Below the pieces are notes generated by a model that did not search any database, was not told the origin of the DNA, and worked only from the letters and a program-made list of their open reading frames with translations. A DNA stretch of 64,000 nucleotides from an archaeon (GTDB lineage: Archaea > Nanobdellota > Nanobdellia > Parvarchaeales > Parvarchaeaceae). The position numbers and the translations under genes were made by a program. Within the stretch, counting starts at the first letter, position 1, and every line of letters begins with the position of its first letter. The stretch covers positions 1,634 to 65,633 of the forward strand of contig JBBIPE010000001.1 of NCBI GenBank assembly GCA_037443005.1, written 5' to 3'. Shown here one piece after another: positions 35,345 through 57,452 of this stretch.

Positions 35345-36151
35345 GTGATTAAAATGGTATTATCATTCAGTGAAGATTATATAGCGAAGATAAGGAGGAC
35401 TTTTGGCCTTAATCTTTATGAAGCTAAAGTGTGGCTTGCGCTTCTTTCGCAGGGAAAATCAACATCCGGTAAGCTTAGTGAGATAGCAAATATCCCAAAG
35501 TCAAGGGCCTATGACATTCTTGTTTCACTTGAAAATGGCGGTTTTATATTGAGAGACTTAAGCAAGCCTATAAGCTACACTGCTATCCCTCCAGAGGAGT
35601 TAATAGAAAAATTAGAGGAAAAAGCCCAGGAGTCCTTAACTCAGAAGCTAGATAAGCTAAGTAAACTTAAAGGAAGCACGGTTTTAGCAGATCTTCAAAA
35701 TCTTTACAATAAAGGAATAAAGTATGTTGATGAAGGGAAAGTCGCGAATGCTTATCAAGGGCTGGACAATATATACTTCAGAATAAAGAAAAGTATAGGA
35801 TCGGCAAAGAGTGAAATAGTTGTCGTTACAACCGAAAAATCTCTTGAGAAGAAGGTTTATGCGCTAAGTAGGGCCCTAAAAAAGGCCAAGGCTAATAATG
35901 TTACAGTGCATTTATACGCTCCAGTAAAGGATGTAAATGAGACTATAGCAAATGAGATAAAGCAGTTTGGAAAGCTTAACAAGACAAATCTGGACATAGG
36001 CAGATTTGTTATAGTTGACGGCAATGAGATATTTATATTCACAGAGAACGAGGAAGAAACACATCCAAGCAATGAAGTGGTTTTGCACATACGCGGTAAA
36101 TACCTGCCAGAAAAGATAAAAAAGCTTGTGTCATCGCATGTTGTTCCATGA
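35345..36151 (+). CDS. TrmB-family transcriptional regulator
   Basis: N-terminal wHTH LYEAKVWLALLSQGKSTSGKLSEIANIPKSRAYDILVSLE. Confidence 0.75.
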   Translation: MIKMVLSFSEDYIAKIRRTFGLNLYEAKVWLALLSQGKSTSGKLSEIANIPKSRAYDILVSLENGGFILRDLSKPISYTAIPPEELIEKLEEKAQESLTQKLDKLSKLKGSTVLADLQNLYNKGIKYVDEGKVANAYQGLDNIYFRIKKSIGSAKSEIVVVTTEKSLEKKVYALSRALKKAKANNVTVHLYAPVKDVNETIANEIKQFGKLNKTNLDIGRFVIVDGNEIFIFTENEEETHPSNEVVLHIRGKYLPEKIKKLVSSHVVP

Positions 36152-36175
36152 ATGACAGAGTAGTTAGCGTTTAAC

Positions 36176-36523
36176 AATGTGAGCGGGAAATCCCACATCC
36201 TTTAGGTGGGATGAAAGCGAATCCAAGAAAAGAATATAACAACGAAATGACAAAATAAAATTATGGAAGTAAGAAGAGCCTACAAATTCAGAATCTATCC
36301 GCTATCTGAAAGAGTATACTACTGCAATAGATGCGGATTGCAGATAGATAGAGACACAAACGCAGCAATAAACATACTCAAAAGAGCTATCTTTGGACAA
36401 AGTAGAAGTAACGCTCAGGGAGATTCAGTAAGACCTCAAAAAGAGGCAGGAATCAAAGAACCGAGAACATATCCTGCAATAGCATGGGAAGCCCACACGC
36501 TTTGGCGGTTTGGAGGACGTCAC
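36176..36523 (+). mobile_element. Miniature IS200/IS605-family element (copy 1): LE hairpin, in-frame TnpB N/C remnant, omega-RNA-like 3' region, RE ending GGAGGACGTCAC; inserted 3' of TTAAC
   Basis: Shares LE and 3' blocks with copies at 45198, 52500 and 57288; MEVRRAYKFRIYP plus CNRCG...DRDTNAAINILKRA TnpB remnants. Confidence 0.8.
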
Positions 36524-36529
36524 TATTAA
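36263..36529 (+). pseudogene. tnpB: tnpB remnant: in-frame fusion of TnpB N-terminus to C-terminal Zn-finger and RuvC-III motif
   Basis: MEVRRAYKFRIYP ... YYCNRCGLQIDRDTNAAINILKRA; 88 aa versus about 400 aa for intact TnpB. Confidence 0.75.
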
Positions 36530-36549
36530 TAATATTTTTAGTAGTTATT

Positions 36550-39500
36550 ATGACCTACATAAAGCAGATAGAGCTTGAGAATTTCAAATCCTTTGCAGGC
36601 CATGCAAAATTCTCATTTGTAAACGGTTTTAATGCGATAGCCGGCGCAAACGGTTCAGGCAAAAGCAACATAATAGATGCGCTACTTTTTGTGTTTGGCG
36701 GCTCGTCGAAAAAAGAGATGAGAAGCGATCTTCTTACTGATCTTATATTCAATGGTGGTAAAAAAAATAGGCCTGCAGATTTTGCCAAGGTAAATGTCAT
36801 ACTAGATAATTTGAAAAAGGAGTTCAAGAGCGCAAACGGCGATGAAATATCGATAAGTAGAAAAGTTGACAAAAGCGGAAAAAGCATGTATAGAATAGAC
36901 GGAAAAGCATCAACAAGAGAGGAAGTATTAAACGTCCTTGCAATGGTGAAATTCCGGCAGGATGGCTTCAATATAATCCCACAGGGAAGAATACTGGAGA
37001 TTATAGGGTCAACTGGGGATGAAAGACTTAATCTCATAAATGATATCTCTGGCATAAGCATATTTGAAGACAAGAAAAGCAAGGCAATGAATGAAATGAA
37101 GAAAGTTGAAGACAATATATCCAAGATAGAGACTGTTCTGAACGAGAAGAAAAAATTAATGGACCAGCTAGATAAAGAAAAAACTAGAGCGATTGAATTC
37201 CAGGAACTTAAATTAAAGCAGGCCTCAAATCTTTCAAAGCAGACATTCTTTAAGAGGGATTTGGCATACAAGGACTTAAGTTCTATACAGGAAAAGTTGA
37301 AGGATATAGAGAAAAACAATCAGGAATTATCTTCGGAAATAGATAGTATAAATTTAAGGTACAAGCGGATAAACGAAGAATTAGATAACATAAACACAAA
37401 GGCAGAAGCGGAGGGCGAGAAGGATATATCCGAGGCAGAGAAAAGGACAAAGGAGTTTGATTCAGAGCTTGCCAGGCTGAATGCAGTTCTTAAAAACGAC
37501 AATGAGCAGTTAAAAAGTATACTCTCTTCCATAGAGGATCTTTCAAAATCACAGGAAGACATCCGCCAACAGGTTAAGAAAGAAGAGGAGGAAAAAAAGA
37601 AGTTTGAAGAGAAGATGGAGCAGATAAACTCCAGAAAATTCATTCTCATAGAAGCGGATTCAAAGGCTCAGAATTACCTTAAAAGCAGGGAAACTCTCGA
37701 GAAGAGGCTATATGAAAATGAGAAAAAAATATATGATCTAAAGATAATACTTACAAATTATCCAAAAGTTGCGGATCTTGAGGATCAAATAACCAAGTTA
37801 AGGGAAACTAAATCCGAAACCGAAAAGAAGCTAAAGGACATCACATTGTCCTTTTCTGCACTTAAGCCTGAGATAGATAAGCTAAAAATACAGTCTAAAC
37901 GCGAGGGAGACTCAATTTATCTTTTCAGGGAGCAGTTGCTTAACCAGAGAAATATTCTTTCATCTCAGAGTAAGGTGATAGATGTTGTCAACAAGCTAAA
38001 AAAGGAGATAAAAGGGGTTCATGGTTCAGTATCGGAGCTTTTTTCATTAAAGGATGAAAAATTCAATGTACCAGTTATAAGAGCTATAGGCAGGAGGAGC
38101 GATTTTATAATTGTTGATGACGAAAACGTAGCAAGGCAGTGCATAGAAAAGCTTAGGGAGGAAAAGCTTGGCTTTTATACATTTATCCCGATGACAACTG
38201 TAAAAACAGTATACAATCTGGAGAAGATAAATCAAGAAGGTGTAATTGACTATATAATAAATCTTGTCACTTTCAGTGATTCTTATTCAAATGCAATGAG
38301 ATTCGTATTTGGTGATACCATACTTGTTGATAACTTTGAATCTGCAAGAAAATTTATAAACAGATACCGGATGATCCTTTCCGATGGAACAGTATTTGAA
38401 AAAACCGGAACAGTTTCCGGTGGACATTTTGAAATACCTAATATCCTGAATATAAACCGCAGAATATCTGATATAAACAAGGAGATAGAGGAACATTCAA
38501 AAATAAAGGAAAAATTAGATGAAGAGATAATAGAGAAGGAAGCCACGCTGAATTCAAGCATGTCCGAAATAAAATTACTGCAGAATGCAATAAACGAGGC
38601 AAATGTAAATCTTGATAAGGTAATAAAGGAAAGATCCAAATTCACCGGAACTGAATCAGAGGTTTCAGAGAAAATAAGGAATCTTGAGAATGAGGTACTT
38701 GAAATAAAACCAAAACTTTCTGATCTTGAACAGGGTAAACCTGAAATTTCTGATCATAAAAAAGAGATAGAATCTCTGGATAGGGAAGTAAACGATTTAC
38801 AAGTAAAAATAGCGACTTCTGGCGGCAGGCTTTCAACTATTTTTATGTCAGAGCTGTCAAATCTTGAGAAAAGGTTCACTCAGTTAACAAAGGAGAAGGA
38901 CAGGTTTGAAAAAGATATAGAAGATGTTGAAGATGCAATAAATGATACCAGAGAAAATTATGAAAAGGCGAGAAAGGAGCTGTCAAGCAAATCCGATAAT
39001 CTTACAATGTTAAGGAAGAGGAGAAATGAGCTTATAAATTCTCTTTCAGCATTACAGAAGGAAAAGGATGAGTTGCTTTCAAAGTCACAGAAAGTGGGCA
39101 ATGAGCTGAATTCGCTAAAAGTAAAGGAAGCAGAGCTGAAGGTAAAGTTTGACACTGCTGATGATGAGTTCAAAAAATACAGAGTAAATGGCGCGGAACC
39201 TGCAGAGGGAGAGACACTGGAAAAAGTTACAAAGGACCTTAACATAATAATAGCCAAAATAAATTCATTCGGGCCTATTAATGAGCTTGCCCTTAATACT
39301 TTTGTTGAAACACAAAAACAGTACGAGGATTTCTCTGGCAAGCTTTCCAGCCTTAACGAGGAAAAGGAAAGGATAATTGCCGTTATAACGGACATAGAAA
39401 ACAAGAAACTAGAGTCATTCAATAAAACGCTTTCGGATATAAATTCAATATTTACAAAGGTCTTTAATTCAATAACTGGTGGGAGTGCGGAATTTGTACC

Positions 39501-45151: not shown

Positions 45152-45197
45152 TTAAATAAATATGTATTATCGCAGTTTTTAGGCGCTGTGGATTAAC

Positions 45198-45497
45198 AAA
45201 GATAGTGGAAAATCTCACAGTCTTTAGAAGTGGGATGAAAGCGAACCGAAAAAACTATATAACAATAAAATACAATATTAAAAATATGGAGACAGTAAGA
45301 GCCTACAAATTCAGGATTTATCCGAGAGATGTAAACGCAGGAATAAACATACTCAAAAGAGCTACCTTCGGACAGAGGGGAAGTCACGCTCTACGAGATT
45401 CTATAAGACCTCAGGTTGTGGCAGGAATCAAAGAACTGAGAACATGCTCTGCAATAGAGGAGGGATCCACACGATTTGGCGGTTGGGAGGTTGTCAC
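45198..45497 (+). mobile_element. Miniature IS200/IS605-family element (copy 2), inserted 3' of TTAAC; RE GGAGGTTGTCAC ends 3 nt before the nuoJ ATG
   Basis: LE hairpin ATCTCAC-loop-GTGGGAT; METVRAYKFRIYP...RDVNAGINILKRA remnant; conserved 3' blocks. Confidence 0.8.
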
Positions 45498-45501
45498 TTA
45501 A
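45286..45501 (+). pseudogene. tnpB: tnpB remnant (N-terminus fused to RuvC-III motif remnant); stop TAA overlaps nuoJ ATG
   Basis: METVRAYKFRIYPRDVNAGINILKRA; TAATG junction at 45499-45503. Confidence 0.7.
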
Positions 45502-45977
45502 TGGATATAGGCAGCATAGGTTTCATTATAATCTCGTTAATGCTTATTATCACTGCATTGCTCATGGTTGCTACGAGAAACATGATACATTCTCTTCTCT
45601 ATATGTTCATGTTTATTATCTCTGTAACGGCTATGATCCTTTACCTTAATGCAGTTTTTTTAGGGGTAGCAGAGCTTATAATATACAATGGCGGTATAGT
45701 CCTGCTTCTAGCGATAGGTATCAGTTCAATGCCGGAAGGAAAAATAAACAGACTTAATTCAAAGCTTGCTTATGCTCTACCTGTTGTCTTTCTTGGAGTG
45801 ATATCTTTTCTGCTTCTTAAAATGCCGTCATCATCGTATGGCAATACACTTAATTACTCTACCTTTGGAGTATACTTTTTTCAGAATTATGGTGGTTTGC
45901 TGGTTGTGCTTGCATTTACAGCGATAGCCAGCGTATTCTCTACAATATATATAATCAGTAGGGGTGATAAGCTATGA
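45501..45977 (+). CDS. nuoJ: NADH-quinone oxidoreductase subunit J
   Basis: MDIGSIGFIIISLMLIITALLMV... NuoJ TM pattern; upstream in-ORF residues are element-derived. Confidence 0.8.
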   Translation: MDIGSIGFIIISLMLIITALLMVATRNMIHSLLYMFMFIISVTAMILYLNAVFLGVAELIIYNGGIVLLLAIGISSMPEGKINRLNSKLAYALPVVFLGVISFLLLKMPSSSYGNTLNYSTFGVYFFQNYGGLLVVLAFTAIASVFSTIYIISRGDKL

Positions 45978-52499: not shown

Positions 52500-52985
52500 A
52501 ATGTGAGCGGGAAATCTCACAGTCTTTAGAAGTGGGATGAAAACGAAATTCGGATAAAATATATATTAGCATGTTATTAGCATGTAAAACAACATAAAAG
52601 ATATGGAGGTAATAAGATCCTATAAATTCAGGATCTATCCAGACATAAAGAGACAGTCGGAAATAGACAATATGCTCGTTCTTGCGCAAAGGCTTTACAA
52701 CAAACTACTTGAGAAATCAATTCAGTCATACAAGAACGGAAATAGTAAAATCTCCATGTCGCAGTTCAATGAATTCGAGAAAGAGACAGATACAAATATA
52801 TCAGTAAATATACTCAGAATAGCTACCATCGGACAAAGTAGAAGTAACATTCAGGGAGATTCTGTTAGACTTCAAAAGGAGGCGGGAATCAAAGAACTGA
52901 GAACCGGTAAAACATATCCTTTGCATAATGCGGTAAACACATGAAACAAAGGAAGCCCATGGAATTTATTCGTGGGAGGATTCAC
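52500..52985 (+). mobile_element. Miniature IS200/IS605-family element (copy 3), inserted 3' of TTAAA (which contains the SPFH stop); RE GGAGGATTCAC contains the stop codon of the convergent HAD gene
   Basis: LE identical to copy 1 over AATGTGAGCGGGAAATC; longest TnpB N-terminal remnant; RE of copy-4 type. Confidence 0.8.
52603..52944 (+). pseudogene. tnpB: tnpB remnant retaining about 45 aa of the TnpB N-terminal region fused to the RuvC-III motif remnant
   Basis: MEVIRSYKFRIYPDIKRQSEIDNMLVLAQRLYNKLLEK ... TDTNISVNILRIA. Confidence 0.7.
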
Positions 52986-57287: not shown

Positions 57288-57452
57288 TTGGAAATCTTTC
57301 ATCCTTTAGAAGTGAGCTGAAGGCGAACTTCTAACAAATAAAATCTCCAAAATTATCGGCTTGTCAGTCTCGCTGGGAATGCACATTGTGTTTGTGGTAT
57401 CATTCATCATCAAACATGAAGCCCATAGAATTTATTCGTGAGAGGATGTCAC
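57288..57452 (+). mobile_element. Minimal (165 bp) IS200/IS605-derived element (copy 4): degenerate LE plus copy-3-type RE GAGGATGTCAC, no ORF; 3' of TTAAG
   Basis: LE core TTTCATCCTTTAGAAGTGAGCTGAAGGCGAAC and last 45 nt align to the other copies. Confidence 0.7.

Follow-up and report, generated by a model that had tools for sequence, protein, structure and literature searches.

The window analysed here is a stretch of 64 kb, part of the ~95.7-kb archaeal contig JBBIPE010000001.1, with a GC content of 36.6% and an archaeal gene content that includes an archaeal-type leucyl-tRNA synthetase (LeuRS), RqcH, subunits A, B and I of an A-type ATPase, aIF5B and CDC48. Four internally deleted IS200/IS605 (TnpB-type) elements, named c1 to c4, occur in the window, all on the + strand. 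The analysis was centered on c1 and on the segment of about 140 nt retained at its 3' end, which a previous inspection of the DNA (hereafter the sequence-only reading) had proposed to be an omega-RNA scaffold, the structured part of the guide RNA of TnpB. The coordinates of the four elements and of their parts are collected in Table 1.

Table 1. Elements c1-c4 of the window and their component features (helix names as in the family consensus described in the text; ORF, open reading frame).
Feature	Positions	Strand	Remarks
c1 element	36176..36523	+	348 bp; internally deleted TnpB-only IS200/IS605; left-end and right-end profile matches 352 bp apart
c1 left flank, TTTAAC target/transposon-adjacent motif	36170..36175	+	agrees with the family consensus right before the left end
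c1 left-end subterminal hairpin, ATCCCAC...GTGGGAT	36190..36212	+	pattern GCGGGAAATCYCAC-N-GTGGGATGA, used for the metagenome scan
c1 putative TATA-like box of the tnpB promoter (AAGAATATAAC)	36230..36240	+	~25 nt before ATG; position conserved across elements
c1 in-frame remnant ORF	36263..36529	+	88 aa; N-terminal 13 aa joined to zinc-finger/RuvC-III and tail; reads past the right end
c1 module, omega-RNA scaffold (highly probable)	36387..36523	+	window-free covariance model 28.7-31.3 bits, E ~1e-4; aligns with modules linked to intact TnpB
c1 helix P1 (UCUUU / AAGUA, loop GGACA)	36390..36404	+	4/5 pairs, one C.U mismatch
c1 helix P2 overall	36414..36465	+	comprises P2a, P2b and apex
c1 P2a (CUCAG with CCGAG)	36414-36418 with 36461-36465	+	4/5 pairs, A.C mismatch
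c1 P2b (GAUUC with GAAUC)	36422-36426 with 36450-36454	+	
c1 apex (CCUC with GAGG)	36434-36437 with 36443-36446	+	
c1 helix P4 (UCCUGC-AAUA-GCAUGG)	36472..36487	+	short form, C.U mismatch; c1/c3 subtype only
c1 helix P3, right-end subterminal hairpin	36491..36516	+	7/8 pairs
c1 putative guide, flank TATTAATAATATTTTTAG	36524..36541	+	predicted function
c2 element	45198..45497	+	300 bp; deleted element; left flank TTAAC (45193-45197)
c2 in-frame remnant ORF	45286..45501	+	71 aa
c2 module, omega-RNA scaffold (highly probable)	45362..45497	+	28.5-29.4 bits; P1 5/5, P2a 3/5, apex 3/4, P3 7/8 pairs
c3 element	52500..52985	+	486 bp; deleted element; left flank GTTAAA; end TTCAC
c3 in-frame remnant ORF	52603..52944	+	113 aa
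c3 module, omega-RNA scaffold (highly probable)	52823..52985	+	long-P4 subtype; 18.2 bits, E 0.03-0.07; P1 destroyed (1/5), P2a 5/5, apex 4/4, P4 6/7, P4b 4/5, P3 8/8 pairs
c4 element	57288..57452	+	165-bp derivative; degenerate left-end hairpin; right side consists of P3 hairpin and tail only (~45 nt)

Each of the four elements is directly preceded by TTAA[C/A/G] and closed by (G/T)TCAC. The parts of c1-c3 occur in the same order, the left-end hairpin (GGGAAATCCCAC...GTGGGATGAAAGCGAA) being followed by a TATA-like box rich in A/T, the ATG and N-terminus of TnpB (MEVRRAYKFRIYP), an internal deletion and the end of TnpB. This end includes the zinc-finger/RuvC-III region DRDTNAAINILKRA in c1 and begins within or just past RuvC-III in c2 and c3. 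Starting right behind the RuvC-III remnant and running to the right end (RE), 137 nt of homologous sequence are retained in c1, 136 nt in c2 and 163 nt in c3, in good agreement with the ~140 nt given by the sequence-only reading, which had also correctly noted that c4 keeps the last ~45 nt, the only part it shares with c3. Among the conserved blocks listed at that stage, GCRGGAATCAAAGAACYGAGAAC was sustained, with three occurrences in the window versus 0.01 expected, and GGAGGNNGTCAC taken alone was not significant (3 matches versus 1.04 expected). The four flanks then quoted as guides were correct, the flank being different after TCAC in each copy, as expected of a guide. With sizes of 165-486 bp, left-end (LE) and RE profile matches, TnpB fragments only, no TnpA and several copies after TTAA[C/A/G], the elements are of the kind known as miniature inverted-repeat transposable elements (MITEs) or palindrome-associated transposable elements (PATEs), the latter term deriving from Haloquadratum (PMC3119063). 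Since the left-end hairpin of c4 is degenerate (57288-57330; TCTTTCA ... TGAGCTGA in place of TCCCAC ... GTGGGA), this copy is probably no longer mobile.

The coding remnants were compared with full-length relatives by tblastn, indicating that about residues 1-13 and 342 to the end of TnpB are left in c1, about 1-13 and 359 to the end in c2, and about 1-67 and 356 to the end in c3. The reading frame is kept across the deletion junction in all three remnant ORFs. The 5' junction after YKFRIYP is common to c1 and c2, and c2 resembles a c1 from which 48 more nt were deleted in frame; the c3 ORF stops at the natural tnpB stop and its tail is homologous to the C-terminus of the L057 TnpB. A protein search with the remnant ORFs returned 14 close relatives, every one of them a fragment of 66-196 aa. 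Two of these fragments, P0001 (99% identity, encoded on another contig) and P0002 (85%), have the deletion junction of c1, and P0004 has that of c3; the deletion derivatives are therefore established multi-copy lineages. Within the 64-kb window, neither an intact tnpB (tblastn with full-length relatives) nor a tnpA (search with a TnpA query) was detected. The 88-, 71- and 113-aa ORFs should accordingly be annotated as tnpB remnants.

Outside the window, a metagenome scan by the left-end hairpin pattern alone retrieved 120 family loci. Three other searches were unproductive, as a metagenome scan with tail-peptide alignment gave no match, GGAATCAAAGAACNGAGAAC found only four bacterial matches in the genome contig collection (about the chance expectation), and distant blastn against plasmids gave no match. 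The 114 distinct left flanks of the family showed a (T)TTAAC consensus directly before the LE and random sequence upstream, thus supporting the earlier assignment of TTAAC as the target motif on the left flank, and the flanks past CAC were unrelated among copies, each differing after (G/T)TCAC. Pairing of LE and RE returned three size classes, i.e. short elements of 144-490 bp, tnpB-only elements of ~1150-1480 bp and elements with both tnpA and tnpB of ~1535-1730 bp; L030 (tnpA-only IS200-type, 606-607 bp) and L076 (~1074 bp) fall outside them.

With a full-length family TnpB (L022) as query, 3961 homologues passed E<=1e-20, and those bearing a name belong to Candidatus Micrarchaeota/Micrarchaeales, Marsarchaeota and Ca. 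Mancarchaeum. On Micrarchaeales-type and other archaeal contigs, c1/c3-type modules lie right behind intact TnpB genes of 403-420 aa, and homologous modules follow or overlap an intact tnpB of 403-435 aa in L022, L057, L081, L126, L127, L130 and L138. In these intact relatives, the final 30-100 or more nt of the tnpB frame are shared with the segment, which extends to the RE. A Sulfolobus-type tail (TPVE...EAGSP) together with a TTCAC end was found in the family members L031, L052, L063 and L069. The retained 3' module of the window copies is thus homologous to the region running from the 3' end of intact tnpB through the RE, as proposed for an omega-RNA-type scaffold.

Iterated nhmmer searches started from c1-c3 yielded 57 matches, with ~31 distinct sequences spanning the whole module. 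RNAalifold was then applied to 10 short-form modules, the window sequences being excluded, and returned a consensus of 27 pairs, 16 of them with compensatory changes. The consensus consists of helix P1 (5 bp, loop GGRCA), the linker GAAGUAACGC, P2a (5 bp), an internal loop conserved as GGAGA opposite GUCnnnGAA, P2b, the RE hairpin P3 and a tail ending in GUCAC. A covariance model (R1) built from the same 10 sequences and run across the whole window with filters off ranked c1 (28.7 bits), c2 (28.5 bits) and c3 (18.2 bits) as the top three matches; the next match scored 10 and c4 7.4. Over 40 model matches, 91.1% of the helix cells were paired versus 66.3% in shuffled controls (0/500 reached the observed value) and 36-46% in slid registers, with both-side changes at 26/27 pairs, including 5/5 pairs of P1, and a covariation score of 0.519 versus 0.157.

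A second alignment, consisting of 13 c1-type modules with c1-c3 included and produced by unfitted MAFFT, showed 89% paired cells versus 73.5% for shuffled sequences (0/500) and 36-46% for slid registers; both-side changes occurred at 20/38 pairs and the covariation score was 0.433 versus 0.178. This alignment supported two subtype-specific hairpins, the apex on P2b and P4 between P2a and P3. The apex is found as CCUC/GAGG, CCCUG/CGGGG, CAUUCC/GGAAUG and CGAUAC/GUAUCG, and a long form of P4, with 7/7 plus 5/5 pairs, occurs in L013, L057, L126, L127 and L130. As G.U cells outnumber A.C cells (102 versus 14, over 830 paired cells in all), the structure can be assigned to the tnpB-sense strand. 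A possible pseudoknot joining the 3' GGAGG tail to the apex CCUC was dropped from consideration, because short-form members carry no apex.

These data confirmed, across the relatives of the window copies, a conserved structure with abundant compensatory changes, and both the covariation at 26/27 pairs and the reading of the conserved linker in three codon phases bear out the view that RNA stems rather than coding sequence are conserved. The two examples originally put forward from the window copies themselves did not hold. The replacement of CCTC-AAAAA-GAGG by CCTC-AGGTT-GTGG fails as a compensatory change, since a U-A pair becomes U.U through the A-to-T difference, and the AGG-to-TAC difference breaks two P2a pairs in the family register, a shifted and bulged register regaining one A-U pair only. 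On the grounds of descent and architecture, we are highly confident that the segments 36387-36523, 45362-45497 and 52823-52985 are omega-RNA scaffolds (also termed right-end element RNA, reRNA), and we suggest that they be marked as such, possibly pseudogenised, in the annotation.

The integrity of the window copies was evaluated by a core-pair score over 33 pairs of P1, P2a, P2b, apex, P4 and P3. L057, which has an intact TnpB, scored 33/33; L013, L094 and L127 scored 32/33 (L127 lies behind an intact tnpB, the tnpB of L094 is frameshifted and the left end of L013 was not found), and L126 and L130, both with intact TnpB, scored 31/33. The score was 28/33 for c1, with a C.U in P1, an A.C in P2a, two breaks in P4 and a C.U in P3; 25/33 for c2, with two P2a breaks, a U.U in the apex, a shifted P4 register and one P3 break; and 28/33 for c3, where P1 is down to 1/5. 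The displacement of P4 by one base in c2 leaves a helix of 4 bp (CUCU/AGAG). In c1-c3, therefore, 5-8 of the 33 core pairs are broken, above any module linked to intact TnpB. Folding energies pointed in the same direction, as the z-scores of c1 (+0.77), c2 (-0.08) and c3 (-1.55) were like those of shuffled sequence, while seven of eight other family members gave values from -2.4 to -4.3 (the eighth, L078, gave -1.19). The minimum-energy fold matches the consensus in most other members, with the exception of L087. As the single-sequence folds of c1-c3 carry no energy signal and are mutually inconsistent, their structure is established only from relatives. In mini-elements elsewhere, P1 is complete (5/5) and 10-12 of the 12 P2 pairs are retained.

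The proposal that c4 might be a guide-RNA-only derivative could not be upheld. In the nhmmer searches only profile positions 79-137 of c4 were aligned, and since only the terminal hairpin is kept, c4 has no scaffold and cannot supply one.

Short members of the family show how far such elements can be reduced. The whole module is kept in 11 of ~17 independent short lineages, and in the smallest elements nothing but a TATA box and ~25 nt separates the left-end hairpin from the module. Minimal elements of this type were found at three sites with a length of 190-198 bp (L087, L088 and L041) and at four sites with a length of 207-212 bp (L009, L038, L089 and L111). Given the usual archaeal TATA-to-start spacing, their transcription would start at about the 5' edge of P1.

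Omega RNAs of TnpB and mini-elements that keep them are already known, and guide-only use in trans has been noted (PMC10055086). The IS605-type TnpB7 of Sulfolobus islandicus REY15A recognizes the transposon-adjacent motif (TAM) TTTAA, tolerating NTTAA, has an RE ending in TTCAC and a guide placed directly after UUCAC; its RNA overlaps the 3' part of the tnpB coding sequence, requires both ~113 nt of coding-derived sequence and the 38/39-nt RE part, and works in trans (PMC11043419). The likeness to the window modules, drawn from the published description of that RNA, concerns the archaeal host, the TAM, the RE end, the guide position and the overlap with the 3' end of tnpB, and it is from the TnpB7 guide position that the putative c1 guide was located. 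The window copies differ in belonging to another subfamily, in the GSNAxGD phase, in the extra apex and P4, in a mostly GTCAC end and in having no tnpB attached. PATE-like mini IS200/IS605 elements of Geobacillus stearothermophilus often encode omega RNAs (Meers et al., PMC10055086); like the window copies, such elements are non-autonomous, have both ends and no nuclease or transposase gene, and often still encode an omega RNA that would depend on a TnpB made elsewhere. However, those families are bacterial or haloarchaeal with other ends and TAMs, whereas c1-c3 hold in-frame tnpB remnants and partly eroded scaffolds.

The omega RNA of the ISDra2 TnpB from Deinococcus radiodurans (PMC8612924) likewise runs from the tnpB 3' end to the RE, with a guide in the flank and a TAM in the left flank, but ISDra2 has the TAM TTGAT, a bacterial host and a scaffold sequence unrelated to the window modules. 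Finally, the haloarchaeal sense-overlapping transcripts (sotRNAs; RF02656/RF02657; Gomes-Filho et al. 2015, as cited in PMC12558985) arise at the 3' end of IS1341-type tnpB and are now regarded as omega RNAs. They share with the window modules the archaeal host and the tnpB 3' end; yet, with Rfam models including these two families, no match at E<=10 was obtained on c1 (36150-36560) or on the module of L037, a canonical family member, whose only Rfam match was a chance glutamine-riboswitch outside the module. At the gathering threshold, Rfam gave no relevant match over the whole window. What is new is an omega-RNA model (P1-P2-[P4]-P3) with structural support for an archaeal IS200/IS605 family that is large and absent from Rfam, the overprinting of the scaffold by tnpB in each of the three reading phases, the separation of the part serving transposition (P3) from the RNA part (P1/P2), and the documentation of minimal 'promoter plus scaffold' transposons.

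Two explanations of the conserved segment that involve no guide RNA were weighed. The whole ~140 nt might act as a transposition signal at the DNA level, its hairpins being kept in single-stranded DNA (ssDNA) for recognition by TnpA. P3 is indeed a classical subterminal RE hairpin similar to that of the LE, the RE profile cross-matches left ends, and, because the transposed strand and the RNA have the same sequence, covariation alone cannot separate the two. However, class-B mini-elements of 376-391 bp containing P3 and the tail only are present at four distinct TTAAC sites (L026, L039, L053 and L099), and the tnpA-only element of L030 (L030:1542-2148) has the family LE and RE hairpins without P1 or P2, which shows that P1, P2 and P4 are dispensable for transposition and that the segment is not merely a transposition signal. 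In addition, G.U pairs, which are weak in DNA, are frequent in the module, and the coding-derived region is needed for the RNA-guided activity of TnpB7 (PMC11043419). We thus consider a pure DNA signal very improbable. P3 itself has a dual role, as the hairpin recognized by TnpA in ssDNA and as the last stem of the scaffold. Even less credit, close to none, can be given to the idea that conservation is a leftover of coding for the TnpB C-terminal tail without any structured RNA. The three remnants are all in frame, and the c1 and c3 tails differ by 5 synonymous versus 3 non-synonymous codons of 20, but the same nucleotides are read in three phases: the linker GAAGUAACGC has phase 1 for the window subtype (GSNAxGD), phase 0 for Sulfolobus-like members (E-V/L/S-T-P-V/L-E) and phase 2 for L052. 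Full-length tnpB genes stop at positions that range between +29 nt from the linker and sites past the RE, the tail peptides differ between subfamilies (GSNAxGD, EVTPVE, KSSLSE), and the both-side changes of the helices also contradict a coding origin.

A third alternative accepts the scaffold and holds that the modules are working guide-RNA-only genes, expressed from the left-end promoter, loaded in trans by a TnpB encoded elsewhere and protecting the elements against loss after TnpA excision. The concept is documented for PATE-like elements, whose omega RNAs need to act in trans (PMC10055086), and S. islandicus TnpB7 is active with RNA expressed from another location (PMC11043419). Promoter, scaffold and correct boundaries are all present in the window copies, identical deletion junctions occur in several contigs, mini-elements elsewhere have fully intact helices at several sites, and most independent short lineages keep the whole module. 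On the other hand, the broken core pairs of c1-c3 with the loss of P1 in c3, folding energies indistinguishable from shuffled sequence, the absence of tnpB and tnpA from the window, the recovery of TnpB fragments only among close relatives and the missing scaffold of c4 are all contrary hints, and use of the modules by a TnpB encoded elsewhere, as suggested by the sequence-only reading, appears rather doubtful. Other TTAA-flanked matches to the four putative guides were not found within the window, the best match having 2 mismatches and no TAM (42922, minus strand). The explanation that we favor, with moderate confidence, is that an omega-RNA scaffold segment survives in mini-elements gutted of tnpB that are probable relics. 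Because pairs are broken, no partner nuclease is visible and all close relatives are fragments, we judge it fairly probable that none of the window scaffolds is currently used and that, instead of working guide genes, they are relics undergoing erosion.

Several observations weigh against these conclusions. The identity of the scaffold rests on its position, its structure and the analogy with S. islandicus TnpB7, with no match to a curated RNA family. Both c1 and c2 still score 28-31 bits and retain P2b, apex and P3, and a degree of mismatch is tolerated in genuine omega RNAs. Folding z-scores may be depressed by the AT-rich host while function is kept, an intact TnpB could exist outside the 64-kb window, and the recurrence of the c1-type junction in P0001 and P0002 indicates a mini-element lineage that propagated and persisted, which fits continued maintenance.

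In intact relatives, and in the window copies if their scaffolds were active, the element would be transcribed from the TATA-type tnpB promoter retained in the left end, and TnpB would bind the transcript and trim it to the scaffold plus ~16-20 nt of right flank. The resulting complex might cut the TTAAC-plus-flank 'empty site' left by TnpA excision, and recombination after the cut would restore the element; for the window modules we infer transcription, processing, TnpB binding and use in trans alike. It is conceivable, though we hold it to be unlikely, that the family contains true guide-only selfish elements of 190-350 bp, made of left end, archaeal promoter and omega-RNA scaffold, and that the c1/c2 lineage is maintained in this way. 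Such elements would borrow TnpA for moving and TnpB for restoration after excision from other elements, and would represent hyperparasites of TnpB homing, abundant where related TnpBs are annotated (Micrarchaeota, Marsarchaeota) and carrying an omega-RNA family not yet in Rfam. The L030 element is a candidate transposase source for the non-autonomous members of its community.

Further observations concern individual members of the family. In the class-B mini-elements (L053:1013-1388, L099:5289-5664, L039:2729-3105 and L026:2374-2764) a conserved and unrelated internal segment of ~290 nt lies between the family ends. L100:290-604 and L058:7170-7534, from two samples, occupy one insertion site with both flanks identical and a different interior; the 5' strand of P1 is replaced in L058, a within-locus mini-element variant. 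Identical TnpB elements in at least two gene contexts (L130:4131-4150, L132:1798-1817, L134 and L135) have a common 20-nt right flank, TTAATTATAGTGGGAATCTA, and since this flank resembles a TTAA target followed by the start of an LE, they may be tandem or nested insertions.

As for the surroundings of the window copies, 28 nt separate the RE of c1 from the likely start of smc downstream of it (ATGACCTACATAAAG at 36552; region 36523-36555). The reconstructed empty site (TTTAAC+TATTAATAATA) resembles the TATA region of smc; c1 may thus have inserted into the smc promoter, and read-out from the element could now feed smc transcription. The ATG of a NuoJ-like membrane protein (45501-45977), whose gene is the first of a nuoJ-K-L cluster, follows the RE of c2 (45497) by 3 nt. 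The stop codon of the c2 remnant ORF overlaps this start codon (TAATG, 45499-45503) in what looks like translational coupling, and the putative c2 guide would span the same start codon. TTAA or ATTAA occurs within the first 6 nt past the RE in c2 (45498), c4 (57453), c1 (36524), L126:11286 and L130:4131, which may reflect a preference for targets rich in TTAA or no more than the AT-richness of intergenic sequence. All four window copies share one orientation inside 21 kb (36176-57452), in keeping with the strand bias known for IS200/IS605 insertion with respect to replication.

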